A DNA stretch of 64,000 bases from the NCBI GenBank assembly GCA_965261455.1, contig OZ253453.1, positions 1,366,374-1,430,373 of the forward strand, in the 5' to 3' direction. Under the pieces are notes generated by a model that saw only the letters and a list, made by a program, of their open reading frames with translations, did not search any database and was not told the origin of the DNA. Positions 81-25,078 of this stretch are shown piece by piece; the stretch's first letter is position 1; every line of letters starts with the position of its first letter. This DNA comes from Dehalococcoidia bacterium. Its GTDB lineage: Bacteria > Chloroflexota > Dehalococcoidia > SHYB01. A program made the translations under genes and the position numbers.

Positions 81-254
81 CTGAGGACTTCCCGCCAAAC
101 GCCGCTCGGACGCCCAACAGGTAAGCTGCCATCTGGTTCCGATTGCCCTCGGCTAGCCCGCCCCTCCATCCCTTGCCGAAGGCGGGTAGGCCCATACGGC
201 GGCGCTCAGGCCAGGCGGTCGGTCAAGGGATCGTGATTCTCGGGAGATAGCAAG

Positions 255-2699
255 ATGCACGGCCTCCGTGTGCTCGATCTCAGTCGCGGCATTGCCGGCG
301 AGTTTTGCGCCCGGCTGCTCTGCGGCTATGGCGCTGAGGTCATCAAGGTCGAGCATCCCCAGCACCCCAGCGCCACGCGCGGCATTCCGCCCTTTCTCCG
401 GGACGAGCCTGGGCTGGACCGGAGTGCGCTCTTTTGGCACCTCAACGGCGGCAAGCAGGGAATTACCCTGGACCTGAGTTCCGCCGCCGGTAGGCATGCG
501 GCGATGGGGCTTGCCGCCATTGCCGACGTGGTTATAGAAGACCTGACGCCTGGCGCCCTCGACGACATGGGCCTGGGCTATGCGTCCCTGCGCCGAGCCA
601 GACCGGACGTCATTCTCACTTCGGTCACGCCCTTTGGGCAAAGCGGGCCCATGCGGGGGCACGAGGCCACGGAGCTGGGGTTGCTGGCCGCCGGAGGGGA
701 GCTCTACATCACTGGCGCCCCGGACCGGGAACCCATCAAGCCGGGGGCGCACCTTGCCTCCCACGCCGGCGGCCTCCAGGCCGTCGTAGCCACTTCCGCC
801 GCCCTGTGCCTTCGTCAGGTGACCGGTATGGGCCGGCATATCGACGTCTCAGTCCAGGAGGCCGTCGGAATGTTCCTCAGCGGGGGGCCTGCCTGGGTCC
901 ACCACTTCGGCCAGACCCAGACTCGCGTCGCAGCTCGTGTGGCCCAAGCGATGGTGCGCCATGCCTACTCCGGCAACATTCTGCAGTGCAGCGACGGTTA
1001 CCTCTGGTTCGGCACGGGGCACAACCAGGACATGATTGGACTACTTGTCGGCAGGGATGACTTGGCATCCCCCGAGCTTTGGCGTCAGCCAGGCCTGCAT
1101 GCCGACGAGATCGATGCCGCCATCGAAGCCTGGACAATCTCGCGGACACGACAAGAAGTCACCGCGCTGGCGCAGGAGCTCAACATCGCCGTCGCCCCGG
1201 TGCTCACCCTCCAAGAGGTCTTGGAGAATCCCCAACACGCCGCCCGAGAATTCTTCCAATCGGCGAGGCATCCCGCTTTCGGCGACTTACTGGCCCTTGG
1301 CGCTCCGGTCCGATGCAAGGAACTAGCCTGGCGCGTGGGACCGGCCCCAGCCCTCGGCGAGCACAATGCCCAGGTCTTCCAGCAAGTCTTGGGCGGTTCC
1401 CCAGCGAACGCCAATCCATCGTCCCAGGGGAAGGGCGACGCCCCACCCACGGCTCCGCTCAAGTCCATCCAGCCACTGGAGCGGCTGCGCGTCCTGGACC
1501 TCACCAACAACGTGGCTGGGCCTTTCGGGACGCTGGCACTCGCCAGCTTGGGCGCCGAGGTCATCAAGGTCGAGCGACCGTGGATCTCGGAGCTGCGCGA
1601 GGGGCGGCGAATAACGCCTCCCGCTAAGCCGGGCGCCCCGGACGAATCCTACAATCGCGTCTTGTGGTTCAACGAGGTCAACAGGGGCAAGCGAAGCGTC
1701 CCCATAGATATATCGTCAGACGAGGGGAGGCGACTCCTTCTCGATCTGGCGTCCGTGAGCGACGTTATCGTGAGCAACTTTTCGACCCGCGTCATGAACA
1801 ACCTCGCCCTCGACTACGAGACCCTCGTTAAGGTAAGGCCGGACATCATCTACGCCACGGTGTCGGGATACGGCTCTACCGGTCCGGCAGCGTCCTGGAG
1901 CGCCGCCGGACCGGCCATCGACGCAGCCTCCGGCATTGCCTGGCTGACCGGCTATCCGGACGGCCCACCTCTGCGTCCGGGAAACTTCGTCCCCGACCCC
2001 ATCGCCGGTCTGTATCTCGCTTGGGCCGTGCTGATGGCCGTCTACCGCCGCCGCGAGTCGGGCAAGGGTGAACGCATCGACCTCTCCATGCTCGAGGGCA
2101 TGGAGCACATCGTCGGCGGAGAGCTAGTAGCGGCCGCGGCCGGAGCCGCCGTTCCCGCCAAGACCGGCAACGACATCGAAGGCATGGCGCCCCACGGCTG
2201 CTTTCCCTGCGCGGGCGACGACGCCTGGATCGTCATAGCCGTCGAGAACGACCGACAGTGGCTGTCGCTCTGCGACGTCATGGGCAGGCCCTCCTGGGGC
2301 CGGGACGAGCGGTGGCGTCACGCCCAAGCCCGGTGGGAACAGCGGGAGAGCCTCCATTGGCTCCTAGCAGACTGGACCGCGTCGCAGGACCGTTTCGATC
2401 TGGCGAACCGCCTCCAGGCGGCCGCCGTTCCCGCCGTGGCCGTGCTGAACTCCGCGGACCTGCTTCAGTCGCCGCACCTGTGGGAGCGGGGATATTTCGA
2501 GTTCGACCAGCATCCCCACGTACCCCCTAGTCCATTCGCCGGGTTCGGCTGGGGGCCCTTCACGTCGGAGCCACAACAGCCCGCCCCCCTCTTCAGCCAG
2601 CATCTTGACGACGTAGTTGAGCTATTGGGTATTTCGGCCCAGCAGGTTGAGCAGCTGCTGGCAGGCAGTGTGATCGTCAGAGGGCCCCGGCATGAATAA
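255..2699 (+). CDS. tandem-fused family III CoA-transferase (two complete CaiB/BaiF-type domains in one 814-aa chain)
   Basis: Both halves begin with the family-III signature (LRVLDLSRGIAGEFCARLLCGYGAEVIKVEHP; LRVLDLTNNVAGPFGTLALASLGAEVIKVERP). A Pro/Ser/Ala linker joins them near aa 390-410. RBS-like gggaga upstream. Confidence 0.85.
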   Translation: MHGLRVLDLSRGIAGEFCARLLCGYGAEVIKVEHPQHPSATRGIPPFLRDEPGLDRSALFWHLNGGKQGITLDLSSAAGRHAAMGLAAIADVVIEDLTPGALDDMGLGYASLRRARPDVILTSVTPFGQSGPMRGHEATELGLLAAGGELYITGAPDREPIKPGAHLASHAGGLQAVVATSAALCLRQVTGMGRHIDVSVQEAVGMFLSGGPAWVHHFGQTQTRVAARVAQAMVRHAYSGNILQCSDGYLWFGTGHNQDMIGLLVGRDDLASPELWRQPGLHADEIDAAIEAWTISRTRQEVTALAQELNIAVAPVLTLQEVLENPQHAAREFFQSARHPAFGDLLALGAPVRCKELAWRVGPAPALGEHNAQVFQQVLGGSPANANPSSQGKGDAPPTAPLKSIQPLERLRVLDLTNNVAGPFGTLALASLGAEVIKVERPWISELREGRRITPPAKPGAPDESYNRVLWFNEVNRGKRSVPIDISSDEGRRLLLDLASVSDVIVSNFSTRVMNNLALDYETLVKVRPDIIYATVSGYGSTGPAASWSAAGPAIDAASGIAWLTGYPDGPPLRPGNFVPDPIAGLYLAWAVLMAVYRRRESGKGERIDLSMLEGMEHIVGGELVAAAAGAAVPAKTGNDIEGMAPHGCFPCAGDDAWIVIAVENDRQWLSLCDVMGRPSWGRDERWRHAQARWEQRESLHWLLADWTASQDRFDLANRLQAAAVPAVAVLNSADLLQSPHLWERGYFEFDQHPHVPPSPFAGFGWGPFTSEPQQPAPLFSQHLDDVVELLGISAQQVEQLLAGSVIVRGPRHE

Positions 2700-2866
2700 G
2701 GCGCCATCTCACAATCGCATGACCTCGGGACTTTCGCCTTCATAGTCCCTCGCCACACCCCCGATTATCGGATCTCGCACCTTGACAGGCTCGGCGCACC
2801 CGACATATAAGGCGGATGGTCAGGCTCGGCGGGACGAAGACGCGGCGGCAAGTGAAAGGTGGAAAA

Positions 2867-3676
2867 CGAGTGCCTATCGAATACGAGAAAAAAGACAAGA
2901 TCGCCTATATCACGATCAACGGCCGCAACGAGGTCAATCCGTTCTCGCCCGAGATGTACCAAGAGCTGTACCACGTCTTCAAAGACTTCCGCGACGACCG
3001 GAAGCTGAGCGTCGCCATCATCACCGGCGAGGGAAGCAAGGCGTTCTCGGTGGGCGGCGACCTCAAACGGATGGTGAAGTCGGCGGACGAATTGGACCAC
3101 CTGGAGATCTTCGAGCGGATCTGGTACCCGCACACCGAGCCCTTGGGCTATCCATCCGCCCTTCACGACGTCTTCAGCCTGCAAATGTGGAAGCCTATCG
3201 TTGCGGCGGTCAACGGCTATTGTCTGGCGGCGGGGCTGGAGATCCTTCTGCTCATGACGGATATTCGCGTCGTTTCGGACGACGCCAAGTTCGGCTTCGC
3301 CGAGGTTTTGCGAGGGCTGGCTGGGGGAGCGAACACTGGAGTTACGATGCAGATTCCCCACTGCATCGCCATGGAGCTGTTGCTGACCGGGGAGATGATG
3401 GACGCCCAGGATGCCTGGCGGTCGGGCCTGGTGAACAAAGTCGTTCCCAAGGACCAAGTGTTGCCCGTGGCCGAGGAGTACGCTCGGAAGCTGAGCAAGA
3501 TCCCTCCCCAAGTCCTGCGCGTGCAGAAGGAGATGGCCGCCGTCACCGGCGATGTGCCGCGAAGCATGGTCCTCCAATACGCGAGGATCCTTGGGGCCAT
3601 GCAGCGCGTGGTCCCGGACGCCTACGAGGGCCAGATCTCCTTCCTCGAGCGGCGCGACCCCGATTACAAGGGCTAA
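2867..3676 (+). CDS. enoyl-CoA hydratase/isomerase (crotonase) family protein
   Basis: KIAYITINGRNEVNPFSPEMYQEL...AIITGEGSKAFSVGGDLK crotonase fold motifs. GTG at 2867 with aggtgg 8 nt upstream. Alternative ATG at 2816. Confidence 0.8.
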   Translation, partial: RVPIEYEKKDKIAYITINGRNEVNPFSPEMYQELYHVFKDFRDDRKLSVAIITGEGSKAFSVGGDLKRMVKSADELDHLEIFERIWYPHTEPLGYPSALHDVFSLQMWKPIVAAVNGYCLAAGLEILLLMTDIRVVSDDAKFGFAEVLRGLAGGANTGVTMQIPHCIAMELLLTGEMMDAQDAWRSGLVNKVVPKDQVLPVAEEYARKLSKIPPQVLRVQKEMAAVTGDVPRSMVLQYARILGAMQRVVPDAYEGQISFLERRDPDYKG

Positions 3677-3920
3677 CAGCCGCTAGCGTAGGAGGGTAGG
3701 CGTTCCCCCTGGCTCTCCCTCATGCCAAGGCCGTCGGCGTTGCCACTGTCGGCGTCTTCGCATCTCCCGGCGAAGCGCCCGGCTCGACGACGCTCCGGCC
3801 TGCACGAGCCCGAATCACGTATACTCCTCGGAAATCGAGCCTAGTCGCCGGGGATACGGCTGACTCATTCCTCCCTCGACCGTGCTCGCAGGCGCCTAGG
3901 CGCTGCAGGGACCTTACTTC

Positions 3921-4877
3921 GTGAAGGCCTATATCGTCCGCCGCCTGTTCCTCACGATTCCCACGCTTTTCCTCGTCTCCGTCTTTATCTTCATCATCTT
4001 GCGACTTCTGCCGGGTGACGTCGCCCTCATCATCCTGACCGGCGGCGGGACCACGCAAATCGACCCCCAGCAGTATGCCGAGCTCCGCCAGCAGTTGGGG
4101 CTCAACGACCCCTGGCACGTGCAGTATTTCGACTGGGTATGGGGCATGCTGCGGCTGGAGGGCGGCGACTCCTTGTGGACCGGCAATCCCGTCTTTGAAG
4201 ACATCTCACGAGCTCTGCCGGCGACGCTTCAGTTGACCATCATGGCGTTGCTCATCTCCCTTGTTATCGCGATTCCCCTTGGCGTCCTGAGCGCCATGTA
4301 CCGCAATAGCCTCTTGGACTACGCCATGAGGATCGTCGCGATCTCGGGGCTGGCCATGCCAGACTTTCTGGTGGGGGCGATGCTCATCTTCATCATGGTC
4401 GTCTTCTTTAACTGGATACCGCCCCTCGACTACGCCGGCTTCTTCGAGAACCCCGCCAGCAATCTGCAGCAGATGATCTGGCCGGCCTTGATTCTGGGAT
4501 ACATCCAAGCGGCGTTCCTGGCCCGGATGATCCGGTCGACGACGCTTGAGGTGCTGGGCCAGGACTACATCCGCACCGCCTGGTCCAAGGGGCTGGGCTC
4601 CCGGCACATCTACATTCGGCACGCCCTGCGCAACGCGCTCCTTCCCGTGGTCACGGTGGCCGGCATTCAAACGACTCAACTCCTTGGCGGGGCCGTCATC
4701 GTCGAGAACATCTTCGCCATACCCGGGCTTGGCTTTAAGCTCCTGGAGGCCATCGTCAACCGGGACTGGGTCACCCTCCAGACCGTGGTGACCCTCTTTG
4801 CCCTTGCCATCCTGCTCATCAATCTGTTCATCGATCTTCTCTACGGTTGGCTCGACCCTCGGATTCGGTACGGGTAA
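3921..4877 (+). CDS. ABC transporter permease, DppB/OppB-like
   Basis: N-terminus MKAYIVRRLFLTIPTLFLVSVFIFIILRLLPGDVA and the EAA-region layout are typical of peptide/opine-family ABC permeases. Confidence 0.85.
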   Translation: MKAYIVRRLFLTIPTLFLVSVFIFIILRLLPGDVALIILTGGGTTQIDPQQYAELRQQLGLNDPWHVQYFDWVWGMLRLEGGDSLWTGNPVFEDISRALPATLQLTIMALLISLVIAIPLGVLSAMYRNSLLDYAMRIVAISGLAMPDFLVGAMLIFIMVVFFNWIPPLDYAGFFENPASNLQQMIWPALILGYIQAAFLARMIRSTTLEVLGQDYIRTAWSKGLGSRHIYIRHALRNALLPVVTVAGIQTTQLLGGAVIVENIFAIPGLGFKLLEAIVNRDWVTLQTVVTLFALAILLINLFIDLLYGWLDPRIRYG

Positions 4878-4895
4878 CAGGGAGGCTGCGCGCCG

Positions 4896-5804
4896 TTGCG
4901 GAACGACCAAGCAATCGGGATCACGGCGAGTCTCTCGGGGAGTGCGTACGCCGCGTTGCACCGCTGGGGGGCGAGAGCCGTCCGCTTCGCTAGGGATAAC
5001 CCTGTGGCGGCGATCGCCGCGTTGATTCTGTTCGTCCTGGGATTCCTGGCCGCCTTTGGGCCGCTCATCTCCCCATTTGACCCCCTGGAATTCCACTCCA
5101 AAGAAAGGTTCGCCAGCCCCTCGGGGACCTACCTCATGGGCACGGATGAGTTCGGCCGCGATCAACTCAGCCGGCTGATCGCAGGGACCCGCTCCATCTT
5201 CACCATCGTCGTGGTCTCCGTGGCTATCGGAGTCACCGCCGGAGCCCTGATCGGCCTCATCAGCGGCTATCGCGGCGGATGGCTGGACAGCATTCTGCAG
5301 CGGTTCATGGACAGCATGATGGCCATCCCGCTTCTGGTCCTGACCCTCGCTATCCTGGCGATGCTGGGGCGCAACGACATCAACGTCATCGGGGCCATCG
5401 CCGCGGTCAACGTGCCCATTGCCAACCGGGTGATCCGCTCGGCGACCTTATCCGCCAAAGAAGAGCTCTACGTCACCGCCGCTAAGGCCCTCGGGGCTTC
5501 CGACTGGCGCATCAGTCTGCGGCACATCGGCCCGAACGTGTTGGCCCCATACTTGGTTGTCGTCACCACCCAGTTGAGCTGGGCGATCATCGTTGCGTCC
5601 GCATTGTCGTTCCTGGGAGTCGCCTCGCCCCCGCCCGAGCCTTCCTGGGGAAGAATGATGTCCGAAGGCGCTCGCGAATTCGCCGAACGGGCGCCATGGC
5701 TCGCCGTCTTTCCCGCGGTCTTCGTATTCTTGACCGTGCTAAGCTTCAACCTTGTGGGCGACGTCCTGCGCGACTCCCTGGACCCCAGACTGCGCGGACG
5801 CTGA
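4896..5804 (+). CDS. ABC transporter permease, DppC/OppC-like
   Basis: LMGTDEFGRDQLSRLIAGTRSIF motif and TM layout typical of DppC-type permeases. Immediately downstream of the DppB-like gene. Confidence 0.85.
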   Translation: MRNDQAIGITASLSGSAYAALHRWGARAVRFARDNPVAAIAALILFVLGFLAAFGPLISPFDPLEFHSKERFASPSGTYLMGTDEFGRDQLSRLIAGTRSIFTIVVVSVAIGVTAGALIGLISGYRGGWLDSILQRFMDSMMAIPLLVLTLAILAMLGRNDINVIGAIAAVNVPIANRVIRSATLSAKEELYVTAAKALGASDWRISLRHIGPNVLAPYLVVVTTQLSWAIIVASALSFLGVASPPPEPSWGRMMSEGAREFAERAPWLAVFPAVFVFLTVLSFNLVGDVLRDSLDPRLRGR

Positions 5805-5823
5805 CGGTCCGCCGAGTACGACG

Positions 5824-6138
5824 ATGGCGAAGCAGTATCCGCTTGCCAAGGTATCGGAGTTGCAGCCGGGCGAGATGAAGCTCGTCGTGGCCAACAGGGA
5901 GCGGCTGCTCCTGGCGAACGTCGACGGCGTGTTCCACGTCATCAGCGACACCTGCACCCACAAGAGGACCTCGCTGTCGCAAGGCATGCTCGAGGGCGCT
6001 CTGGTGGAATGCCCCTTGCACTTCGCTCGCTTCGACGTCCGGACCGGTGCGTTCATCGATGGCCCCTACACGACCAACGTGGCCCGCTACGAGGCCACGG
6101 TCAGGGGAGACACGGTGTACGTCGAAATGGATAGCTAG
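5824..6138 (+). CDS. Rieske [2Fe-2S] ferredoxin-domain protein
   Basis: CTHKRTSL...CPLHFARFDVRTG, the CXH...CXXH Rieske cluster-ligand pattern. ATG 5824 in frame with track ORF 5752. Confidence 0.7.
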   Translation: MAKQYPLAKVSELQPGEMKLVVANRERLLLANVDGVFHVISDTCTHKRTSLSQGMLEGALVECPLHFARFDVRTGAFIDGPYTTNVARYEATVRGDTVYVEMDS

Positions 6139-6265
6139 AGACGACCGCTCGTCACGATAACGCAACAGAAGGGAATTCTTGACATCACCTGAGCGCAATG
6201 CTATACCGTGCCTACTTGCCCGGGCATTCAAGCAGGGGTGGCGGGCGTGACGGAGGGGGTGCCCC

Positions 6266-7429
6266 ATGGGCGACTACAAGGTCATTTCGGCGGACACACA
6301 TATCGTCGAGCCACCCGACCTGTACACCTCGAGGTTCGAGCCGGGGTTGAGAGACCGGGCCCCGCGGATAGAGCGCCGGACGACGAAGGCCGGGCAGGAC
6401 TACGACGTGTGGATCGTGGACGGCCAAGAGGCCGGCATGTTGGGCACCTTCGTCAAGGCCGGTCAGCGGTTCGATGACCCAGAGAAGATCGACTTTCTGG
6501 GCTTCTGGGATGACGTGCGCAAGGCGGCCTACGACCCTCACGAGATGCTCAAAGAGTTGGAGATGGACGGGGTCTGGGCGGCATGCCCGCAACCCAGCCA
6601 GGGCCTCTTCTGGTACCGGTTGGACGACCACGAGATTATCACCGCGACCTGCCGCGCCTACAACGACTGGATAGCCGAGTTCTGCCAGCCCTACCCCGAT
6701 CGGCTCAAAGGCATCGGTGTTCTCAACGTCGACGACGTCGACGAGGCCTGCGCCGAGATGGAGCACTGCGCCGAGATGGGGCTGGTAGGCGTCTTCATCC
6801 CGTCGTCGCCCCTCTGGGAGAGGCCCTACCGCGACCCCATATACGAGAAACTGTGGTGGACCGCCCAGGACGTGGACCTACCCCTGCTGCTGCACATCGG
6901 CAGCAATCGTGGCGGCATCCCGGGCTGCGAGCTCACCATCGACACTGCCGACCTCACGGCGGCCGGCTTCGCCACCATCGACTACTGGGTCAGATACTCC
7001 ATGACCTGCATGATCTTCGCCGGTGTGTTCGACCGCTACCCGAAGTTGAAAGTGGGCTCCGTCGAGCACGAGACGGCGTGGATCCCCCACTGGCTCAAAC
7101 AGATGGACTTTATCTACATGGAACGGCCGGCGCAAAGCCGAAAGCTGGGATGGCGCTCCAAGCAAGGGTTCCTCCCCAGCGACTATTGGCGCGAGAACTT
7201 CTTTGTGGAGTTCATGGAAGACGACGCCGGCATCCAGATGCGTCACCTCATCGGGGTGGACAACATGCTCTGGGGGAACGACTTCCCCCACGCGGAGTCC
7301 ACCTGGCCCCAGTCGATGCAGTTCCTGGACAGGATCTTCCAGGGCGTCCCCGACGAGGAACGCCGCAAGATAACCTCGGAGACGGCAGCCAAGATCTTCA
7401 AATTCACACTGCCATTAGGGTTGGCCTGA
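6266..7429 (+). CDS. Amidohydro_2 (ACMSD/LigW-like metal-dependent hydrolase/decarboxylase) family protein
   Basis: ISADTHIVEPPDLY N-terminal metal-ligand motif, about 385 aa, paralogous to four other ORFs in the window. RBS gacggaggggg. Confidence 0.8.
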   Translation: MGDYKVISADTHIVEPPDLYTSRFEPGLRDRAPRIERRTTKAGQDYDVWIVDGQEAGMLGTFVKAGQRFDDPEKIDFLGFWDDVRKAAYDPHEMLKELEMDGVWAACPQPSQGLFWYRLDDHEIITATCRAYNDWIAEFCQPYPDRLKGIGVLNVDDVDEACAEMEHCAEMGLVGVFIPSSPLWERPYRDPIYEKLWWTAQDVDLPLLLHIGSNRGGIPGCELTIDTADLTAAGFATIDYWVRYSMTCMIFAGVFDRYPKLKVGSVEHETAWIPHWLKQMDFIYMERPAQSRKLGWRSKQGFLPSDYWRENFFVEFMEDDAGIQMRHLIGVDNMLWGNDFPHAESTWPQSMQFLDRIFQGVPDEERRKITSETAAKIFKFTLPLGLA

Positions 7430-7461
7430 GCCGCCACCACGATCAAACGGAGGAAGCCGTA

Positions 7462-9234
7462 ATGAACCAGCGGTCTCGATTCCGGAAGCTGCATTTCATG
7501 ATTGGCGCGACGGCCCTGCTTGCGCTCATCGTGGCCGCCTGCGCGGGACCGGCAGGACCGGCAGGACCGGCGGGCCCCGAAGGACCGGCGGGCCAAGCGG
7601 GAGCGGCGGGCCCCGAAGGCCCACAAGGCCCACAAGGGCCGACCGGGGGCGATGCTCCGGCTCCCCCATCGGCGCCGACTGCGACAGCGGTCCCACCCAC
7701 CGCTACGCCCCTGCCCGCTCCGCCGCCGCCCGGGGACGAACCGAAGTACGGTGGAACACTGATTGCCGCCTCGTCGGGCGACCCCCCGAACCTCGACGTG
7801 GCCCGCGCCACCTCCGTTCAGCTCCTGCACATGTGGGGCCAGGCCTACAGCCAGTTGGTCCGCTACAACTTCGAGGAGCCCCTCGAAGAGATCGTCCCCG
7901 ACCTTGCAACGGGGTGGGAGATAAGCGCCGACTCGAAGGTCTACACATTCAAGCTGCGGCAGGGCGTCAAATGGCACGACGGACAAGACTTCACCGCTGA
8001 AGACGCCAGGTTTGCTGTCCAAGTGCTGAAGGACGAAAACCCTCGCCTCATACCGGAGCTGGAGTCGGTCACCGCTATTGAGGCGGTTGGCGACGACACT
8101 CTGCGGATCAGCCTAAGCGCCCCCAGAGCGTCCCTCGTGGCGGTCCTCGGGATCATCCAGGCCCCGACCATAGCCAAGCACGTTTGGGAGGCCGCAGCCG
8201 GCGACCTGTCGGACGGGCCGACGGTGGGTACCGGGCCCTTCCTAGCAGGCGAGTATGTCCGGGGTGAGTCCGTCGACTTCACTCGATTCGACAGCTACTA
8301 CTTGGAAGGCAAGCCCTACCTGGACGCCATCAGATACCTGATGATCGGCGACGAGTCGACCCGTATCGCGGCCTTCCGGACCGGCAGGGTGGACCTTCTG
8401 GGGCCCGGCGTCACCGACATCAACAAGGTCCAGCTTGCGCAGCTCCAAGGCGACGTGCCCGATCTCAGCCCCAACCCCTACGACCGGCTCTCTTCGAAGA
8501 TCGTCATCATCAACACCGACCGTGAGCCGTTCACTGACGTGCGCGTGAGGCGCGCCATCTTCCTCGCCATCGACCGGTTTGAGGCTCTGGAAGTCCTCGA
8601 CGACGTGACCAGGCCCGCGGGTCCCGCATTCGCGCCGGGGTGGGAGCTGCCCGAAGAGGAGCTGCTTTCCATGCCGGGCTACCGCCAGGGCGCTGAAAAA
8701 CAGAAAGACCTGGACGAGGCGAAGAGGCTGCTCACTGAGGCCGGTTTCCCCGACGGGTTCGATACCGAAGCCGTCACCGTAGGACCCGTGGCACGGCTGG
8801 TGAAGCTGCAAGTCTTCGTCGTAGACCAGCTCGCCAAGGTCGGCATCCGCGTGAAGTCGTCGCCGCTTCCCTTCCCTGAACTCGTCCCCAGAGCGGTCTC
8901 CAACGACTTCGACCTGTTCCCGGTGGAGTCCTCCGTTCTCTACATCGACCCCGACGCCAACTCCTACAACATCTCGGTCCAACCCTTCTCCAACGTCCTG
9001 GTCGACGAACGAACCAACGAGCTCTATGCCCAGCAGCGGGCCGAACAAGACCCCACGAAGCGGCGCGAGTTGGTCTACGAGATGCAACGCCGCATGCTCG
9101 AGACGCTAGGGCAGATTCCCATCGCGTGGGGACAGGGCTTCTGGCCCTCTCAGCCGAGAATCAAGGGGTTCTTCCCACCCCTGGGCGTCTGGCTCCACGC
9201 ACCGCGCTTGGACCACGTATGGATAGACGAGTAA
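7462..9234 (+). CDS. ABC transporter substrate-binding lipoprotein (family 5, DppA/OppA-like) with collagen-like GXY linker
   Basis: Signal peptide plus lipobox LIVAAC. GPAGPAGPAGPEGPAGQAGAAGPEGPQGPQGPTGG repeats, then Ala/Pro/Thr linker, then SBP_bac_5-like body (KYGGTL...). ATG 7462 with aacggaggaag RBS. The track's upstream extension to 6583 overlaps the preceding gene. Confidence 0.85.
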   Translation: MNQRSRFRKLHFMIGATALLALIVAACAGPAGPAGPAGPEGPAGQAGAAGPEGPQGPQGPTGGDAPAPPSAPTATAVPPTATPLPAPPPPGDEPKYGGTLIAASSGDPPNLDVARATSVQLLHMWGQAYSQLVRYNFEEPLEEIVPDLATGWEISADSKVYTFKLRQGVKWHDGQDFTAEDARFAVQVLKDENPRLIPELESVTAIEAVGDDTLRISLSAPRASLVAVLGIIQAPTIAKHVWEAAAGDLSDGPTVGTGPFLAGEYVRGESVDFTRFDSYYLEGKPYLDAIRYLMIGDESTRIAAFRTGRVDLLGPGVTDINKVQLAQLQGDVPDLSPNPYDRLSSKIVIINTDREPFTDVRVRRAIFLAIDRFEALEVLDDVTRPAGPAFAPGWELPEEELLSMPGYRQGAEKQKDLDEAKRLLTEAGFPDGFDTEAVTVGPVARLVKLQVFVVDQLAKVGIRVKSSPLPFPELVPRAVSNDFDLFPVESSVLYIDPDANSYNISVQPFSNVLVDERTNELYAQQRAEQDPTKRRELVYEMQRRMLETLGQIPIAWGQGFWPSQPRIKGFFPPLGVWLHAPRLDHVWIDE

Positions 9235-9252
9235 CGCTCCTGACCTAGCAAC

Positions 9253-9292
9253 CGAATCGCCCCTGTTGCGGCAGGGGCGATTCGCTTTAGGC
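9253..9292 (+). terminator. hairpin terminator candidate after SBP gene (GAATCGCCCCTG-ttgcgg-CAGGGGCGATTC)
   Basis: 12-bp perfect inverted repeat directly after the stop at 9234, followed by a short T-containing tract. Confidence 0.5.
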
Positions 9293-9360
9293 GCCTTTCG
9301 GGACGAGGAAAGAGTACCCTCACCACGGCGATGGGTTGGAGGAGGCGGTAGGAAGGAAGT

Positions 9361-11061
9361 ATGGCGATGTACGATCTGGTTATCCGCGGCGGCACTATCG
9401 TCGATGGGAGAGGCCTTCCCCGGTACAAGGCGGACCTCGCCGTCAAGGACGGCAGAATCGCCATGATCAGTGGGAAGATCAACGCGGGGGGTGCCAGAGA
9501 GCTTGACGCCGGCGGCTGCATCGTGGCCCCCGGCGCCGTCGACCTCCACACCCACTACGACGCCCAGGTCAACTGGGACCCCTATTGCTCCATGTCCGGC
9601 TGGTTCGGCGTGACCTCGCTCACCATCGGTCAGTGCGGCTTCGGCTTCGCGCCCACGCGGCCCGATGACCGAGAGTTGAACATGCGCATGATGAACCGCG
9701 TCGAGGCCATCCCCCTCCACTCGATGCAAAAGGGCATGCGTTGGGACTGGGAGACCTTCCCCGAGTACCTCGATAGCCTGGACCGCCAGGGCCTGGGACT
9801 CAATATCGGAGCGCTGTTTCCCATGTCTCCCATGCGCGGCTACGTCATGGGAATGCTGGAGTCCCGGCAGAGAACGTCGGCGACGGATGCGGAGATCAAT
9901 CAGATCAAACAGATCTTCTATGACGCCATGAAGGCTGGGGCCTTCGGATTCTCCGCCAACAAGAGCGCCGAGGACCGGCCCGACGACGGCGGCTACCTGC
10001 CCACCCACGTCACTTCCGATGAAGAATACCTGGCCATGGCCGAGGTCCTCGGAGAGTTCGGCGTCGGTCACATCGGCTGGACCATCGGCGTCCCTATCTT
10101 TGACGACCGCCCTGCTCAGCACAAGCTGGTGAGCAAAATGATGCGGATTTGCGGGCGTCCGGCGCACATCAACTGCATCTTCGCGACCCCCGAGGACATG
10201 GTCTGGCTGAATGAGTCTCGTGAAGAAGGTCTTCCCCTGCTGATCCAGCAGCCCACCATCTACCCCGACGCCATCTTCAAGCTCTCGGAGTACAACCTCT
10301 TCGATATCTACCCCAACTGGGTGCAACCTCTGGTCGGCGGCGCCGAGGAACGGGCGGCCAAGCTGCGAGACCCGGCGACCCGCGCCGCCATGAAGCGCGA
10401 TGTGGAAGGCCAGAGCGGCATTACCACGCGTACGGATTGGGACACCTTCGCCGTCGTGGAAGTCGCTCACGAGCGAAACCGCAAGTACGAGGGCAAAACG
10501 ATTGAAGAGATAGCCCGGATGGACGGGAAACACCCCCTCGACGCGCTCCTCGATCTCGCCCTCGACGAAAACCTCGAGACTGAATTCATGAACAAGTCGG
10601 GTGCCGGGGACCCTGGGGAAGAAGGGCTTGCGCCCCTCATCAAGCACCCCTACTTCCACATCTCCCTGTCGGATGGAGGGGCCCACACCAGATACTTCAC
10701 CGTGAGCACCTGGCCCGTCAACTTCCTGGCGCACTGGGTCCGAGACAAAGAGCTCATGACCCTGGAAGAGGCCCACGTCAAGATGAGCGCCTACCCTGCA
10801 TGGTTTGCCGACTTCAAAGACCGCGGCACCTTACAACTGGGCGCCTGGGCCGACATCATCGTCTACGACTTCGACAAGCTGGGCTACATGTACCCCAAAC
10901 CCGTCTTCGCCACCGACTTCCCCGGCGGGGAGCGGCGGATCATTCAGAAGCCCACCGGCCTCCGCTACACCATCGTCAACGGCACAGTCACGTTCGAGGA
11001 GAACGACTGCACCGGCGCCCTGCCCGGCAAGCTGCTCCGCAGTTACGACATGGTCGCGTAG
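9361..11061 (+). CDS. D-aminoacylase (N-acyl-D-amino-acid deacylase) family amidohydrolase
   Basis: MAMYDLVIRGGTIVDGRGLP...AVDLHTHYDAQ amidohydrolase-3 type N-terminus, 566 aa. ggaaggaagt RBS. Confidence 0.8.
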   Translation: MAMYDLVIRGGTIVDGRGLPRYKADLAVKDGRIAMISGKINAGGARELDAGGCIVAPGAVDLHTHYDAQVNWDPYCSMSGWFGVTSLTIGQCGFGFAPTRPDDRELNMRMMNRVEAIPLHSMQKGMRWDWETFPEYLDSLDRQGLGLNIGALFPMSPMRGYVMGMLESRQRTSATDAEINQIKQIFYDAMKAGAFGFSANKSAEDRPDDGGYLPTHVTSDEEYLAMAEVLGEFGVGHIGWTIGVPIFDDRPAQHKLVSKMMRICGRPAHINCIFATPEDMVWLNESREEGLPLLIQQPTIYPDAIFKLSEYNLFDIYPNWVQPLVGGAEERAAKLRDPATRAAMKRDVEGQSGITTRTDWDTFAVVEVAHERNRKYEGKTIEEIARMDGKHPLDALLDLALDENLETEFMNKSGAGDPGEEGLAPLIKHPYFHISLSDGGAHTRYFTVSTWPVNFLAHWVRDKELMTLEEAHVKMSAYPAWFADFKDRGTLQLGAWADIIVYDFDKLGYMYPKPVFATDFPGGERRIIQKPTGLRYTIVNGTVTFEENDCTGALPGKLLRSYDMVA

Positions 11062-11126
11062 GGCGCCTACCGGGCAACGAACAAGATAACGCTTACAGCG
11101 CTAGACAATTCCCGAGGAGGCAGGAT

Positions 11127-12917
11127 ATGAAGGGCCGACTAGCTGTTTTCATCGCGGCTGCCGCCATTGTCTCCTTGGTGGTCGCCGCCTGCGCCGGTCC
11201 GGCAGGACCGGCGGGCCCAGCGGGACCGGCGGGCCCGGCAGGACCGGCGGGCGCAGCGGGACCGGCGGGCGCAGCGGGACCGGCAGGCCCCGAGGGCCCA
11301 CAAGGGCCGGCCGGGGGCGATGCTCCGGCCCCCCCACCGGCGCCGACTGCGACAGCGGTCCCACCCACGGCCACGCCCACACCGGAGCCGGCCCCAACGC
11401 CGGCTCCGCCCACGGAGTCCCAGCCTCGCCGGGGCGGTATCTTGACGGTCTCTGGAGGCGATCCGCCCAACATCGACCCCATCAAGGCCGTCACCAGCCA
11501 GTATTACCTGCACTGGGGCAATATCTATAGCGGCCTGGTCCAGTACAACCCAAGGCAGCCGGTGAACCAGATCATTCCAGACCTCGCGGAGAGCTGGGAG
11601 ATAGGCGCCGATCTCACCCGGTACACGTTCAAGATGCGCCCCGGCGTCAATTGGCACGATGGCCAGGCATTCAGCGCCGCCGACGCCAAGTGGAGTCTGG
11701 AGACCCTCATGGCGGAGGGCGGCCACGCCGCCGAACTACCCGCTATCGCTACGATTGAGGCCCCCGACGACGGCACCCTGGTGCTCAATCTGGAGCGGCC
11801 GCAGGCCTCGGTGCTCCAGATACTCGGCCTCATCTTCGTCCCCATCGTGGCTCAGCATGTCTACGAAGCGAACGGCGGGGACCTGTCCAACGGCCCGAAC
11901 ATCGGCACCGGCCCCTTCCTAGAAGCGGAGTACCAGAAGGGTGAGGCCGCGGAGCTCATTCGAAACCCCAATTACTTCGAGACGGTCGACGGCACCCAGT
12001 TGCCCTACCTCGATGGAGTCAAGACGTTCATGATCCGCGACTTGGAGACCAGCTTGGCCGCATTCCGCGCCGGGCGGATCATGCTGCTGGACCCGCGCGT
12101 CGGCATCGACAGGGCCCAAGTGGAGCGGCTGAAGGGAAGCGTCCCCGACCTCAAGCCAACGCCGTGGGACATGCTGCAGATATCGACACTCCTGATAAAC
12201 CCCGACGCCGAACCCTGGAACGACCAGCGCGTGCGGCAGGCCGCCAACTTGGCCATCGACCGGTGGGAGGCCGTGGAGCTCAACGAGAACCTGTACAAGC
12301 CCGCCGGCCCCATCGTCTCACCCGGATGGGGTCTCTCCGACGAGGAGCTCTTTGCACTGCCGGGATTCCGTAAGGGGGCAGACAAGGAGCAAGACCGTGA
12401 AGAGGCTCGGCGACTCCTCGCCGAGGCCGGCTACCCCGACGGCTTTGAAAGCGAGTTGATGCACTTCACCCATGCCGCCTGGATGCAGGACCTCGCGGTG
12501 TTTGCCATAGACCAGTTGGCCAAGGTCGGCATAAGGATGAAGTCCAACGGTCTGCCCTTGGCCGAAGCCCTAGACGCCTGGCAGCAACAGGCGTTCAACG
12601 TGACCACCTTTGGACACAACATCTCCTTCCCCGACCCTGACGCCACCGAGAAAAACGTCAAGCCCAACATCTTCCACTTCCTCGAAGACGCCAGACTCAT
12701 CGAGCTCTTCGACCAGCAGGCGGTGGAGGCCGACCTGGACAAGCGCCGGCAGCTTGTGACCGAAATGCAGCGCCTCATGATGGAGACCTCCGCCGTGATC
12801 TATATCGGCTGGCAGGAGAACTTCTCCCCGGTCGCGCCCCAGGTCGAGGGCCACGAGGGCGGCCTTGGGATATGGAGCCGTATCCGCCACCATTACGTCT
12901 GGCTCTCCGACGGATAG
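11127..12917 (+). CDS. ABC transporter substrate-binding lipoprotein (family 5) with collagen-like GXY linker
   Basis: MKGRLAVFIAAAAIVSLVVAAC lipobox, (GPA)n about 14 triplets, Pro/Thr linker, SBP5 body. gaggagg RBS before ATG 11127. Confidence 0.85.
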   Translation: MKGRLAVFIAAAAIVSLVVAACAGPAGPAGPAGPAGPAGPAGAAGPAGAAGPAGPEGPQGPAGGDAPAPPPAPTATAVPPTATPTPEPAPTPAPPTESQPRRGGILTVSGGDPPNIDPIKAVTSQYYLHWGNIYSGLVQYNPRQPVNQIIPDLAESWEIGADLTRYTFKMRPGVNWHDGQAFSAADAKWSLETLMAEGGHAAELPAIATIEAPDDGTLVLNLERPQASVLQILGLIFVPIVAQHVYEANGGDLSNGPNIGTGPFLEAEYQKGEAAELIRNPNYFETVDGTQLPYLDGVKTFMIRDLETSLAAFRAGRIMLLDPRVGIDRAQVERLKGSVPDLKPTPWDMLQISTLLINPDAEPWNDQRVRQAANLAIDRWEAVELNENLYKPAGPIVSPGWGLSDEELFALPGFRKGADKEQDREEARRLLAEAGYPDGFESELMHFTHAAWMQDLAVFAIDQLAKVGIRMKSNGLPLAEALDAWQQQAFNVTTFGHNISFPDPDATEKNVKPNIFHFLEDARLIELFDQQAVEADLDKRRQLVTEMQRLMMETSAVIYIGWQENFSPVAPQVEGHEGGLGIWSRIRHHYVWLSDG

Positions 12918-14468: not shown

Positions 14469-15698
14469 ATGAGCGGTCCGCTTCACGGAATACGAGTAGC
14501 CGACCTGACCCACTTCATGGCCGGGCCCGTTTGCACGTCATTACTCCGGGACTTGGGGGCGGAGGTGATTAAGGTCGAGCCGCTACAGGGAGAGGCGGGC
14601 CGGTATGGCGGGGCCTACCCTACTCCCTATGGGGAGAGTCTCACCTTCCAAGTCCACAACCGTGGAAAGATGTCCACGACCGTGGACCTGAAGACCGAAG
14701 AAGGCAAGGCCCTCTTTCGCGATCTGATTCGGGTCTCCGACGCATGCGTAGAGAACTTCCGCCCCGGCGTGATGGCCAGGCTCGGCATCGGGTACGAGGA
14801 CCTCAAGAAGATCAACCCCACGATCGTGCTCGCGTCGATCTCCGGCTTCGGCCAGAGTGGGCCGTATTCCCAACTCCCATGCGTTGACTTCATCGCTCAG
14901 GCGATGAGCGGGCTGATGAGCCTCAACGGCCAGCCCGGCGACCCGCCCACGAAGTACGGCGTCGAAATGGCCGACTACTCCGGGGGCATGTTTGGGGCCC
15001 TCAGTGTCGCGGCGGCCCTCTGTCAGCGGGCCATGTCCGGCCGGAGCGAGCACATCGACGTCGGCATGCTCGACGCCATGGTCTACCAATTGAACTATCA
15101 CCCCATCCGCTACAAGTTCGCCGATCTCTTCTATCAACGGATCGGCAACCGGGTGGCGGGGGCCGGCGTGTCCGGTGCCTATCCATGCAAGGACGGCCAC
15201 ATCGTCATCGCGGGCGGCGGCGACGCGAATTGGCAGCGATTGACCAAGGTCATAGGCCACGCGGAGCTTGCCGATGATCCCCGCTACGCCCGCACGCCGA
15301 AGCGCTGGGAGAACCACGATGATCTCGACGTTTTGATCGAGGAGTGGTCTCGCGAGCTTACCGTCGACGAAGCGCTCGCCGCCCTGCGGGAAGAAGACTT
15401 GGTCGTGGGCCCGGTCCGAGAGCTGCCCGACATCTTCGAGGACGAACACCTCAAGGCCCGCGAGATGTTGGTCGAGGTCGAGCACCCATTGCACGGCGCG
15501 CTGACGGTGCCGGGGCCCGTTCCCAAGTTGCGAAACTCGAAGCTTGCGAAGATAGACTCAGCAGCCCCGCTGGTCGCCGAGCACAACGGCTACGTCGTCA
15601 GCGAGCTGCTGGGCCGGTCGACGCAGGAACTTCGCTCTCTGGAGGAGAACGAAGTCATCTTTCCCAAGGTCCCCGGCGCGTTGGCGCAGGACCCGTAG
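14469..15698 (+). CDS. family III CoA-transferase (CaiB/BaiF/Frc-like)
   Basis: MSGPLHGIRVADLTHFMAGPVCTSLLRDLGAEVIKVEP. Conserved Asp in ADYSGGMFGALSVAAAL. caaggagg RBS. Confidence 0.85.
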   Translation: MSGPLHGIRVADLTHFMAGPVCTSLLRDLGAEVIKVEPLQGEAGRYGGAYPTPYGESLTFQVHNRGKMSTTVDLKTEEGKALFRDLIRVSDACVENFRPGVMARLGIGYEDLKKINPTIVLASISGFGQSGPYSQLPCVDFIAQAMSGLMSLNGQPGDPPTKYGVEMADYSGGMFGALSVAAALCQRAMSGRSEHIDVGMLDAMVYQLNYHPIRYKFADLFYQRIGNRVAGAGVSGAYPCKDGHIVIAGGGDANWQRLTKVIGHAELADDPRYARTPKRWENHDDLDVLIEEWSRELTVDEALAALREEDLVVGPVRELPDIFEDEHLKAREMLVEVEHPLHGALTVPGPVPKLRNSKLAKIDSAAPLVAEHNGYVVSELLGRSTQELRSLEENEVIFPKVPGALAQDP

Positions 15699-15706
15699 CC
15701 TGCAGA

Positions 15707-18004
15707 CTACTTGTCGCTGAGGGCGGTCAGCACCTCGGCCGGCGTGATGGGAAGCCGCGTCATCCGGACCCCGATAGCGTCCGACACGGCGTTGGCTACC
15801 GCTGCCAAGGGCGGGACGATCGAGACCTCGCCGACGCCGCGCATACCGAAGGGATGCTCCTGGCTGGGTATCTCCAGCACCACTGGGTCGATGTTGGGCA
15901 CGTCCAAGCTGGTCGGCATCCGGTAGTCCAAGAAGCTGGCGTTGGCCATGATACCGTCGCTCGTGAAACTGTAGGTCTCGGTCAGCGCCCAGCCGATGCC
16001 CTGCACGGTGCCGCCTTGCATCTGGCCTTCGACGTAGCTGGGGTGCGCCGCTTGGCCAACGTCCTGGAACACGGTGACGCGGAGGATGTTGACCTTCCCG
16101 GTCTCGGGCTCCACTTCCACGTCCACGATATTGCCGGCGACCGCGGGGGCCGCCTTCGCGGGGTGGGCTACGGAGGAAACCGAGATAAGGCCGCCCAAGC
16201 GCGGGAGCTGCTCCGCCAGTTCCTTCCAGGTGATTCGTCGACCCTCGCCCTTCGTGCACACAAACTCGCCGTTATCGAAGGCGACGTCTTTGGCCTCCAC
16301 CTCCCAGAGCAGGGCGGCGCGGGCCATCATATGCCGTTTCGCCTCTTCCGCGGCTTGGAGCGCGGCGCGTCCCGTATCGACCGCGACCCGGCTGCCGCCG
16401 GTGAGGCCCGTCCAGCCCACGGAGTCCGTGTCCACGACGACGGGGTGCACGTCGGCGGCCGCCAGCCCCAAGGCTTCCGCCGCTTGCATGGCAACGGCGG
16501 TTCGTGTTCCGCCGATATCGACGGAGCCGGTGACCAAGCTGATCGTCCCGTCGCTGTTCACGTTTATCGCGGCGCAGGACTGCATACTGGCGTTCTTCCA
16601 GTACCCCAGCGCTATGCCGCGTCCGCGGTTCGGCCCTCCCAGATCGGACTGGTAATGCGGATGCCGCTTCATCGCGTCGATCAGTTGCTCGCCCCCATGC
16701 TGCGGTTGCGGGAGACCGTTCGGCATCCGGTCGCCTTTGTGGGCGAGGTTCTCTTTCCGTAGATCGAGCGGGTCCATGTCGAGCCGGCGGGCCAACTCGT
16801 CGAGGACGCTCTCAACGGCGAAGGCCGCGGCCGGCGTTCCGGGCGCTCGGTAGGCGGCCACCTTCGGCTTGTTGCAGACCACATCGCAACCGTCGATGAG
16901 TATGTTGTCGATCTTGTAGGCAGCCGAGCCGCTCATGGCGCCTTCGCCGACCGGCGAACCTGGAAAGGCTCCTGCTTCGTAGATCATCGAGAGCTCGGCG
17001 GCGGTGATCCGCCCCGTATCGGTGGCCCCGATCTTGGCTCGCAGCTGCGTGGCCGACGTCGGGCCCGACGCCTCTAGGACTTCGGCGCGCGTCATGACGA
17101 GCTTCACGGGCTGGCCGCTCTTTTTGGAAAGGATGGCGGCCACCGGGTCGAGATAGGTATCGAGCTTGCCCCCGAAGCCTCCCCCGATCTCCATCGGAAT
17201 GACTCGTACCAGCGATTCGGGAATGCCCAGGATCATGGCGGTCTCGGCCCGGATCGCAAAGGGCCCCTGCGTGCTCGTCCAGACCGTGACCTGCCCGTCC
17301 GGCGCCCACCACGCGGTCGATGTCTGGGGCTCGATGTAGCCCTGATGCACGGTCTGGGTGGTGAACTCGCGCTCGACGATGACGTCGGCTTCCCTAAAGC
17401 CTTCCTCCACGTCGCCGTTCTTGAACTGAATGCGGAACGACACGTTGCTCTTCACCTCGGTATCGTTCCCCCGCTCCAGAAAAGCGAAGGTCGACCGTGT
17501 GGTCATGTCTTCGTGGAGCAAGGGCGCGTCGGGCCGCATCGCGTCGCGGAGAGTGAGCACCGTGGGCAGCACGTCGTATTCGACGTCGATCAGGCCGAGC
17601 GCCTCCTCGGCGACGTGGGGGCTGGTCGCGGCGACCGCGGCCACGGCGTGGCCCTTATAGAGGACCTTCGACCTCGCGAGGACGTTCTCGGCAAGCATCC
17701 TCGCGTTGCCGCGAATCTCGGCGAAGTCAATGGTCCGGTCGGCAAGAATGGGAAGGTCGGCTGCGGTGGTCACGGCTTTGACGTCCGGGTGCGCTTCCGC
17801 CCTGCTCGTGTCGATGCGGCGGATGCGGGCGTGCGGGTGCGGGCTCCGCAGGATCTTGCCGTGCAAGAGACCGGGCATGTGCACGTCGGCGCCGTAGCGG
17901 GCCCGGCCGGTGACCTTCTCCACGCCGTCGTGCCGGATGGGCCTCGTGCCCACGACCCGAAAGCCGGCGTCTGTTTGGCTGGCGGGTCCAACGTCGGTAG
18001 TCAT
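15707..18004 (-). CDS. xanthine dehydrogenase/aldehyde oxidase family molybdopterin-binding subunit (CoxL/XdhB-like)
   Basis: N-terminus RVVGTRPIRHDGVEKVTGRARYGADV typical of the MoCo large subunit, about 765 aa. No FAD or FeS subunit genes adjacent. Confidence 0.8.
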   Translation of the reverse strand: MTTDVGPASQTDAGFRVVGTRPIRHDGVEKVTGRARYGADVHMPGLLHGKILRSPHPHARIRRIDTSRAEAHPDVKAVTTAADLPILADRTIDFAEIRGNARMLAENVLARSKVLYKGHAVAAVAATSPHVAEEALGLIDVEYDVLPTVLTLRDAMRPDAPLLHEDMTTRSTFAFLERGNDTEVKSNVSFRIQFKNGDVEEGFREADVIVEREFTTQTVHQGYIEPQTSTAWWAPDGQVTVWTSTQGPFAIRAETAMILGIPESLVRVIPMEIGGGFGGKLDTYLDPVAAILSKKSGQPVKLVMTRAEVLEASGPTSATQLRAKIGATDTGRITAAELSMIYEAGAFPGSPVGEGAMSGSAAYKIDNILIDGCDVVCNKPKVAAYRAPGTPAAAFAVESVLDELARRLDMDPLDLRKENLAHKGDRMPNGLPQPQHGGEQLIDAMKRHPHYQSDLGGPNRGRGIALGYWKNASMQSCAAINVNSDGTISLVTGSVDIGGTRTAVAMQAAEALGLAAADVHPVVVDTDSVGWTGLTGGSRVAVDTGRAALQAAEEAKRHMMARAALLWEVEAKDVAFDNGEFVCTKGEGRRITWKELAEQLPRLGGLISVSSVAHPAKAAPAVAGNIVDVEVEPETGKVNILRVTVFQDVGQAAHPSYVEGQMQGGTVQGIGWALTETYSFTSDGIMANASFLDYRMPTSLDVPNIDPVVLEIPSQEHPFGMRGVGEVSIVPPLAAVANAVSDAIGVRMTRLPITPAEVLTALSDK

Positions 18005-18032
18005 GACTGTGTCCTTTCTACCGTCGGTCGCG

Positions 18033-19888: not shown

Positions 19889-20128
19889 GGGTGGGGCCTT
19901 CGTCCTCAGCTATTCAACGATGCGGCCACTACTCACGGGCCGACAATACTGTGCGGCTTGATGCCGGAATGGCAAGGCCAGAACGGCAAGGCCAGACAAG
20001 GCATGAGCTTCGCTCTCGACCGCCGAAGGCTTGATTCCCCGGGCCGAACGCTGCTCCTGGGCCGATCACCGGCCCCGGGGCGGTTCGGTGGCGGTCGGTG
20101 TCTTGAATCGCCCGCCGCTCGGACGACC

Positions 20129-21817: not shown

Positions 21818-21859
21818 GGCTTGTCTCCTCGGGCCGGCTTCAGCGGCCTACCTCTGAGG

Positions 21860-23002: not shown

Positions 23003-23074
23003 GTCCCAACCCTCCTCAAACCCAGGTGTTTTCCTATCGCCGCAGCGGACCGAGGTTCGCTGCGGCGGCGCTCG

Positions 23075-24826: not shown

Positions 24827-25078
24827 GGTGGGCCCTCCCAAATGGCGGCGCCGCGCCGGAGCAACGCTGAGCGTCCGCAGGTACGTCTACTCCGAGAACG
24901 AACCGCTTTATCCGGGGGAGACGTGTGGCGACTCTAACATAGCGCGAGAATCAGGGTCAACACGACGAAAGTCGGCGCGACAGAAACCGGATGAGCGGGA
25001 AGACGACGCAATCGAGCCGCAGGTGCTCGAAGCAAGCGGCGGCGGCGGCTTGCGGAATGAGGCCTGCCGCGGGCGCCG

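Follow-up and report, generated by a model that had tools for sequence, protein, structure and literature searches.

The stretch of DNA analyzed here, referred to as the window, comprises 64,000 nucleotides of a Dehalococcoidia bacterium (Chloroflexota), from positions 1,366,374 to 1,430,373 of the forward strand of contig OZ253453.1 (GenBank assembly GCA_965261455.1). The question raised by this locus is whether one of its genes, in which two complete family III coenzyme A (CoA)-transferase domains are joined in a single reading frame, encodes an enzyme with two working halves or with one. An initial annotation, made from the sequence alone, had placed Ser at the catalytic Asp position of the first domain and had proposed an asymmetric enzyme with one active and one non-catalytic half. 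The analysis described below indicates that the protein is probably a single-chain relative of BbsEF, the benzylsuccinate CoA-transferase whose structures were released in December 2025, i.e. a covalent E-F pseudo-heterodimer with a non-catalytic N-terminal half (N-half) and one active site at Asp581 in the C-terminal half (C-half). The gene and its parts are listed below; coordinates refer to the window unless another contig is named, and residues are numbered in amino acids (aa).

255-2699, plus strand: fused family III CoA-transferase gene (from the listing of open reading frames (ORFs), stop codon included; PF02515 matched twice)
255-1394, plus strand: N-half (aa 1-380), a BbsE-type, predicted non-catalytic module without the catalytic Asp, the ENF Asn and the AGP Pro (from hidden Markov models (HMMs) and a tree)
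1395-1475, plus strand: inter-module linker (aa 381-407), Pro/Ser/Ala-rich
1476-2696, plus strand: C-half (aa 408-814), a BbsF-type, predicted catalytic module (from HMMs, the tree and Foldseek)

The ORF is uninterrupted between its ATG start and TAA stop and specifies a protein of 814 aa, and a Shine-Dalgarno-like GGGAGA motif is located about 8 nt 5' of it. The PF02515 model matched the protein with 596 bits against a cutoff of 23.3, in two separate stretches, either of which spans almost the whole profile, and the two halves are 26% identical to one another. The linker (GSPANANPSSQGKGDAPPTAPLKSIQP) is about 25 residues long and contains six Pro, four Ser and four Ala. The initial description of two full domains held in one 814-aa chain by a Pro/Ser/Ala-rich linker is in agreement with both the paired PF02515 matches and this composition. 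Antisense ORFs over the gene (e.g. 153-839, minus strand) were set aside as ordinary spurious ORFs of high-GC DNA, the homology on the plus strand being strong.

More than 100 full-length homologues, each about 800 aa long, were obtained in a protein search, with identities down to about 33%; most were from Chloroflexota and Dehalococcoidia metagenome bins. Two alignments of fused homologues were used, an earlier one of 118 sequences and a later one of 107, and counts of conserved residues are from the latter. The linker had a median length of 23 residues (range 12-58) by a column-based count across the 107 aligned sequences.

A structural model of the chain was built with AlphaFold2 (AF2) using 107 sequences, and had a mean predicted local distance difference test (pLDDT) value of 93.2 and a predicted template modeling (pTM) score of 0.95. 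The latter value, obtained for the whole chain, implies confident packing of the halves in the model as a compact two-module body; the linker is the sole low-confidence segment, with pLDDT below 50 at aa 390-395. Family III enzymes are dimers whose two chains interlock, each being threaded through an opening in its partner, with the active sites located at the interface (PMC9813914, PMC10871334, PMC9196870). In Foldseek, each half of the model superposed on one subunit of an interlocked dimer, by analogy with which the two halves may be mutually threaded within the single chain. No PDB chain covered more than half of the model (Foldseek TM-score normalized to the query (TMq) of 0.47 or less), so that a solved structure of a fused form does not exist in the PDB.

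The residues on which the assignment of the active site depends are as follows.

759-761, plus strand: Ser169 (codon TCC), in the catalytic-Asp column of the N-half (pairwise alignments; codon checked)
1995-1997, plus strand: Asp581 (codon GAC), predicted catalytic nucleophile of the C-half (alignment and invariance)
540-542, plus strand: Asp96 (codon GAC), N-half residue found where the CoA-contacting ENF Asn has been lost
1776-1778, plus strand: Asn508 (codon AAC), ENF Asn of the predicted live site (107/107 fused homologues)

In pairwise alignments, Ser169 was found opposite the catalytic Asp of 4ed9, human SUGCT (9br6) and YfdW (1pqy), and Asp581 opposite that of 10uh, SUGCT and 4ed9 as well as Asp178 of BbsF. 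An hmmalign alignment placed an Asp of the standalone paralogue at 14469-15698 in the same column. The three residue assignments of the initial annotation (Ser in domain 1, Asp in domain 2 and Asp in the standalone paralogue) were thus reproduced. The catalytic Asp of family III lies at the start of the last Rossmann helix (PMC9813914), and in the AF2 model Ser169 and Asp581 each start the long last Rossmann helix of their half (H167-190 and H580-602, respectively). In addition to Ser169 in place of the nucleophilic Asp, the N-half carries Asp96 in place of a CoA-contacting Asn and Glu16 in place of the AGP Pro, whereas the C-half retains all catalytic and CoA-site residues (P423, N508, R512, V513, Y567 and D581). 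In MCT, a solved relative, CoA is contacted by Asn100, Phe101 and Arg104 (PMC9196870), the counterparts of the ENF Asn, of the Phe next to it and of the Arg that follows. The initial annotation had allowed for the case that structural alignment would put another conserved Asp of domain 1 into the active site, but no such Asp was seen; aa 160-178 of the N-half (PIKPGAHLASHAGGLQAVV) contain no acidic residue, and a nearby alternative acidic nucleophile was rejected on this ground. A racemase-like function was also rejected, since racemase chains matched at 1e-25 to 1e-27 as compared with 1e-47 to 1e-51 for transferases, and it is further disfavored by the His beside Ser169, which is not conserved among the fused homologues.

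The difference between the halves extends across the fused homologues. The Asp of the C-half was invariant in both alignments (118/118 and 107/107), whereas the catalytic column of the N-half was variable, with Glu in 26, Ser in 22, Asp in 16, Gln in 11 and His in 7 of the 107 sequences and other residues in the remainder. The ENF Asn, which is invariant in the C-halves, was found in 22/107 N-halves, and the AGP Pro in 103/107 C-halves (P423) as against 59/107 N-halves. A similar contrast was seen for the small-domain/linker Asn (N639, 105/107 versus 20/107) and the small-domain Trp (W658, 105/107 versus 18/107). The residue after the ENF Arg (V513, 107/107) and the Tyr column (Y567, 100/107) were variable in the N-halves, and the Arg after ENF itself was present in 6/107 of them. 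Other residues were conserved in the N-halves, namely E33 (107/107), R42 and K67 (106/107 each), R224 and D247 (103/107 each), and also G38, P46 and F47; the PPxGDxxRxxGPF loop was better retained in the N-halves than in the C-halves. The column of the GDxxR Arg is unreliable for the C-halves owing to an insertion and was excluded from the analysis. This insertion of about 30 residues (RPWISELREGRRITPPAKPGAPDESYNRVLWF; aa ~441-474, window 1575-1676) stands in place of the canonical PxGDxxRxxGP loop of the C-half and has somewhat lower pLDDT values (79-89), while the inactive N-half retains the canonical loop.

The initial annotation had suggested checking whether the Asp-to-Ser change recurs in the first half of fused homologues. 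The absence of Asp does (91/107 sequences), and Ser is one of several residues found in this variable column (22/107). Within the N-half, the Asp and the ENF Asn covary: the Asn was present in 16/16 Asp-bearing sequences as compared with 6/91 of the others (Fisher p = 2e-14, without phylogenetic correction), and the 16 Asp-bearing sequences span at least three sequence groups. Orthologues at 78-98% identity all keep the LASHAGG, AGE and EDL motifs of the N-half. Since the same motifs are retained among them, the degenerate state of the N-half is a maintained one and not a recent decay.

These counts also bear on the explanation that both halves are active, with the N-half using another nucleophile, either Ser169 or a shifted acidic residue. 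The acidic residues found in the N-half column of some homologues (Asp in 16 and Glu in 26 of the 107) speak for it, as does the ENF Asn, whose retention alongside the Asp makes two live sites plausible in the Asp-bearing relatives. In the protein studied here, however, Ser169 and Asp96 form the dead combination, aa 160-178 offer no acidic residue, and the N-half column is not conserved across the fused homologues. Frc variants in which Asp169 is replaced by Ser, Ala or Glu are said to be essentially inactive. Crystal entries exist for all three (1t3z, 1vgq and 1vgr, respectively), and the D212A variant of SUGCT is inactive (PMC10871334). Activity of both halves is accordingly regarded as very unlikely for this enzyme. 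The 16 fused homologues whose N-half retains Asp as well as the ENF Asn (within P0041-P0106; motifs such as ENL...QADYQLG or HNY...QADFQ) form a separate observation, and judging from these motifs they may have two live active sites.

The origin of the asymmetry was addressed by comparison with BbsEF, for which the chain sequences of BbsE and BbsF were rebuilt from printed structure alignments. In BbsF (chain B), Asp178 lies in an NYTDH motif, in accordance with the description of PDB entry 9fol as a 'D178-CoA adduct', whereas in BbsE (chain A) the catalytic column is occupied by Tyr and the ENF motif reads ESC. Half-specific HMMs were constructed from the fused homologues. The N-half profile gave its best score with BbsE (357 bits) and its worst with BbsF (280 bits), homodimeric references falling at 306-354 bits; the C-half profile gave the reverse, with BbsF at 434 bits, homodimeric references at 298-382 bits and BbsE at 197 bits. 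In a neighbor-joining tree, the N-halves formed a clade with BbsE in 98/100 bootstraps and the C-halves a clade with BbsF in 99/100. BbsE and BbsF were each nested within their own half-clade, and the homodimeric enzymes and the standalone paralogue fell outside. The best Foldseek match of the model was 9fn0 (BbsEF), with TM-scores normalized to the target (TMt) of 0.92 to chains B and D (BbsF) and 0.83-0.85 to chains A and C (BbsE). On the basis of the reciprocal HMM scores and the bootstrapped clades, the protein consists of an E and an F module linked covalently, and it stems from an ancient lineage that was already asymmetric. An origin as a recent tandem duplicate of a homodimeric enzyme was ruled out by the ancient E and F clades and by the existence of split as well as fused forms.

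The likeness to BbsEF includes the position of the Asp solely in the F-type module (BbsF D178, equivalent to D581), the loss of both the Asp and the ENF Asn from the E-type module (Tyr and ESC in BbsE; Ser169 and Asp96 here), and the gene order E-F, which is the N-to-C order of the 814-aa fusion. The differences are that BbsE and BbsF are separate polypeptides, whereas the present modules form one chain in a continuous ORF; that sequence identity to BbsEF is merely about 29-30%; and that an enoyl-CoA hydratase gene adjoins the fused gene instead of BbsG dehydrogenase, BbsCD or BbsAB. The BbsEF host is a toluene-degrading denitrifier, and the present genome is a high-GC, Chloroflexota-like one; because of this difference in host type, the substrate is almost certainly other than benzylsuccinate. 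The asymmetric reading of the initial annotation is supported by the invariance of the C-half Asp, the co-loss of the ENF Asn, the stability of Ser169 and the typing of the halves as BbsE and BbsF. The asymmetry thus characterizes the whole lineage, and BbsEF provides a precedent of known structure.

A genome scan, with one genome per GTDB species, was used to survey the arrangement of the two module types. Fused N-C genes were found at 27 loci, fused C-N genes at 3 (L034, L050 and L051) and split adjacent N and C genes at 21; the hosts were Dehalococcoidia, Actinomycetota (including Mycobacterium), Myxococcota, Alpha- and Betaproteobacteria (Silicimonas, Aquabacter and Cupriavidus) and Paenibacillus. 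The catalytic Asp was present in 86/86 C-type modules of this set, and in the paired N-type modules of 4/27 fused N-C loci, 3/21 split pairs and 0/3 fused C-N loci. Fused and split forms were intermixed on the trees of either module, with at least 15-16 state changes, a number that any topology error would inflate. Fusion and fission of the subunits have both recurred, and in both orders. Stop-codon readthrough between the split N and C genes was rejected, since 6/19 pairs were in the same frame and about one third is expected by chance.

The abundance of split pairs is also the main reason to consider that the fusion is an artefact, i.e. a frameshift or lost stop in a metagenome-assembled genome, or alternatively a recent tandem duplication with a decaying first copy. 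Split adjacent N/C pairs are common in relatives (21 loci), and a sequencing error could mimic a fusion. The same architecture was nevertheless shared by over 100 homologues, which come from numerous independent assemblies and from many phyla, and a 98%-identical protein is encoded on two separate metagenome contigs. The frame is continuous, and the linker is typical of fused homologues. The duplication variant is opposed by the 26% identity of the halves and their placement in the ancient E and F clades, and decay of the first copy by the conservation of its degenerate motifs among orthologues. Neither an artefact nor a recent duplication is considered a credible source of the gene.

Several unusual arrangements were encountered in the scan. 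The three reversed fusions (L034:611-3307, L050:3956-6622 and L051:3977-6688), all from Dehalococcoidia, have Trp in the N-type catalytic column (3/3) and cluster beside L070, a split C,N pair from Paenibacillus. The Dehalococcoidia locus L011:3740-9245 contains four successive separate CoA-transferase ORFs in the order N, C, C, N, which amount to two mirrored E/F pairs. At L016:1-3954 (Actinomycetota), a fused N-C gene is immediately preceded by a very long ORF with two weak N-type matches (N-N).

The family III mechanism proceeds through an acyl-aspartyl anhydride and then a beta-aspartyl-CoA thioester (PMC9813914). Applied to a single-chain E-F enzyme, Asp581 would attack the donor acyl-CoA to give the acyl-aspartyl anhydride, CoAS- would then convert this to the beta-aspartyl-CoA thioester on Asp581, and the acceptor acid would subsequently be loaded by the reverse sequence. 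The C-half, as the BbsF-type module, would bear the whole catalytic and CoA site and provide the single active site predicted per chain. The N-half, as a BbsE-type module that is no longer catalytic, would give the second ring of the interlocked fold and would probably add part of the acid-binding pocket to the Asp581 site in trans. The flexible linker would ensure that the interlocked partner is always supplied; because it ties the halves together, the obligatory partner is present at a constant 1:1 ratio. In canonical enzymes, each pocket is completed by the small domain of the partner (PMC9196870). Judging from their conservation, R42, G38, P46, F47, R224 and D247 of the N-half are candidates for such a contribution to the Asp581 pocket.

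Three points weigh against this picture. First, both the threading of the halves and the lining of the Asp581 pocket are features that we infer. Second, the small domain of the N-half is its most divergent region (mean top-residue frequency of 0.39 as compared with 0.54), and N639 and W658 in the C-half are near-invariant; the simple arrangement of a live site completed by the small domain of the N-half, with an idle small domain in the C-half, is therefore not obviously favored. Third, the N-half keeps R42, K67 and E33 of the canonical nucleotide-binding motif, and its pocket may bind a ligand. The conservation of N639 and W658 would be accounted for in different ways. These residues could possibly act in cis with Asp581, or the N-half small domain could possibly vary as the determinant of acid specificity in a family with many substrates; that the N-half pocket still binds something is a third, rather improbable option.

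The last of these options leads to the explanation that the N-half pocket is a non-catalytic site for CoA, an acyl-CoA or an acid, with an allosteric, substrate-parking or structural-cofactor role. It is favored by R42, K67, E33 and the PPxGDxxRxxGPF loop, all better kept in the N-halves than in the C-halves, and by N639 and W658, which are at least 98% conserved and by the canonical trans geometry (PMC9196870) could face the Rossmann pocket of the N-half. It is opposed by the loss from the N-halves of three CoA contacts, namely the ENF Asn (22/107), the Arg after ENF (6/107) and the AGP Pro (59/107), and the conserved N-half residues are equally explicable as structural or as trans contributors to the Asp581 site. 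On balance, we regard such a role as unlikely. There is a small chance that a ligand site formed by E33, R42 and K67 together with N639 and W658 of the C-half controls or feeds the Asp581 site; if so, members of the E/F lineage, whether fused or split, would be CoA-transferases regulated by a pseudo-enzyme, and the partner would be more than structural. A non-catalytic E-type half that completes a single site at Asp581 remains the preferred reading.

The canonical homodimers (Frc, YfdW, YfdE, SUGCT, 4ed9 and Brucella 10uh) belong to the same Pfam family and have the same fold, and the C-half shares their motifs and Asp; its mechanism is presumed to be the same as theirs (PMC9813914). They consist of identical subunits with two equivalent active sites, whereas the present enzyme is one chain of two diverged modules with one predicted live site, and they have a GDxxR loop at the position of the C-half insertion. 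All seven NCBIfam equivalog models examined, which include Frc, YfdE, CaiB, succinate-glutarate and mesaconate CoA-transferases, scored below their cutoffs (best 358.6 bits versus 750). SptAB, a succinyl-CoA:o-phthalate CoA-transferase, is named in the literature as a further family III enzyme of two subunits with a bulky acid as substrate (PMC11659651); it differs from the 814-aa chain in being unfused. The premise of the initial annotation that family III enzymes are always obligate homodimers is contradicted by the heteromeric BbsEF (PDB 9fn0) and SptAB (PMC11659651). The full-text literature searched, the coverage of which is incomplete, yielded no account of a fused family III CoA-transferase. 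Rv1866 may be fused, and nothing was found on it in the literature searched. Family III heteromers in which a single subunit is catalytic are known already, and the protein described here is a single-chain form of this kind.

The window also contains an unfused member of the family.

14469-15698, plus strand: standalone canonical family III paralogue (PF02515, 1.3e-117)

All of its motif columns hold the canonical residues (P, R, E-N-F, D and G), and AGP is present. It scored about 174 bits against either half, and it groups with the homodimeric references outside the E and F clades.

The likely role of the fused enzyme was considered from its gene neighborhood, in which the following gene was annotated.

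2816-3676, plus strand: enoyl-CoA hydratase (crotonase) gene, probable functional partner (ECH_1, 1.7e-46; the start may be GTG at 2870)

The synteny of transferase and hydratase is kept in the related loci L001 and L002, and no terminator-like site was detected between the two genes beyond chance. In the window and in the contigs encoding the 98%-identical protein, a Zn-dependent alcohol dehydrogenase gene precedes the fused gene. The order after it is enoyl-CoA hydratase, two Opp/Dpp-type ATP-binding cassette (ABC) permeases, a Rieske protein, Amidohydro_2 and SBP_5 binding proteins; in a 47%-identical relative, a MaoC-type hydratase follows instead. Among 50 paired loci, a crotonase-type hydratase was the only recurrent immediate neighbor (10 loci), and the other neighbors were scattered (acyl-CoA dehydrogenases, short-chain dehydrogenases/reductases, thiolase-like proteins and HpcH lyases). 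In the window, the fused gene adjoins neither an acyl-CoA dehydrogenase nor a thiolase gene, and there is no bbs-type operon. It is most likely that the enzyme makes the CoA thioester of some imported or locally produced carboxylic acid, which would then be hydrated by the downstream enoyl-CoA hydratase.

Two similar catabolic/transport cassettes lie in opposite orientation in the window, at 2816-12917 (plus strand) and 15707-25870 (minus strand). Each contains an enoyl-CoA hydratase, two Opp/Dpp-type permeases, Amidohydro_2, Amidohydro_3 and one or more SBP_5 proteins, and the fused CoA-transferase heads the plus-strand cassette only. The gene at 15707-18052 (minus strand), convergent to the standalone CoA-transferase, encodes a molybdopterin hydroxylase large subunit of the xanthine dehydrogenase/aldehyde oxidase family; the next genes encode ABC permeases and not the usual flavin adenine dinucleotide (FAD) and 2Fe-2S subunits. 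The long SBP_5 ORFs at 6583-9234 and 10800-12917 (both plus strand) are extended at the N terminus by 250-430 aa, and the added sequence gives weak 'collagen repeat' matches. These extensions are probably Gly/Pro-rich low-complexity sequence or the result of over-extended ORFs; the corresponding SBP_5 gene call on the related contig L001 has just 587 aa.

The finding extends a known principle and does not overturn the current understanding of family III. Thousands of proteins of about 800 aa carry the bare label 'CaiB/BaiF CoA transferase family protein', and they can be read by a simple rule: an F-type module has the Asp together with the ENF Asn, and an E-type module usually has neither, both being lost together. 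This rule ties a large group of uncharacterized enzymes, abundant in Chloroflexota/Dehalococcoidia and present also in Actinomycetota, Myxococcota, Proteobacteria and Firmicutes, to the recently solved structure of BbsEF. A single chain that folds into two mutually threaded rings would be an attractive test case for structural work, and the fused enzymes offer a natural template for the engineering of single-chain, obligately heteromeric CoA-transferases.

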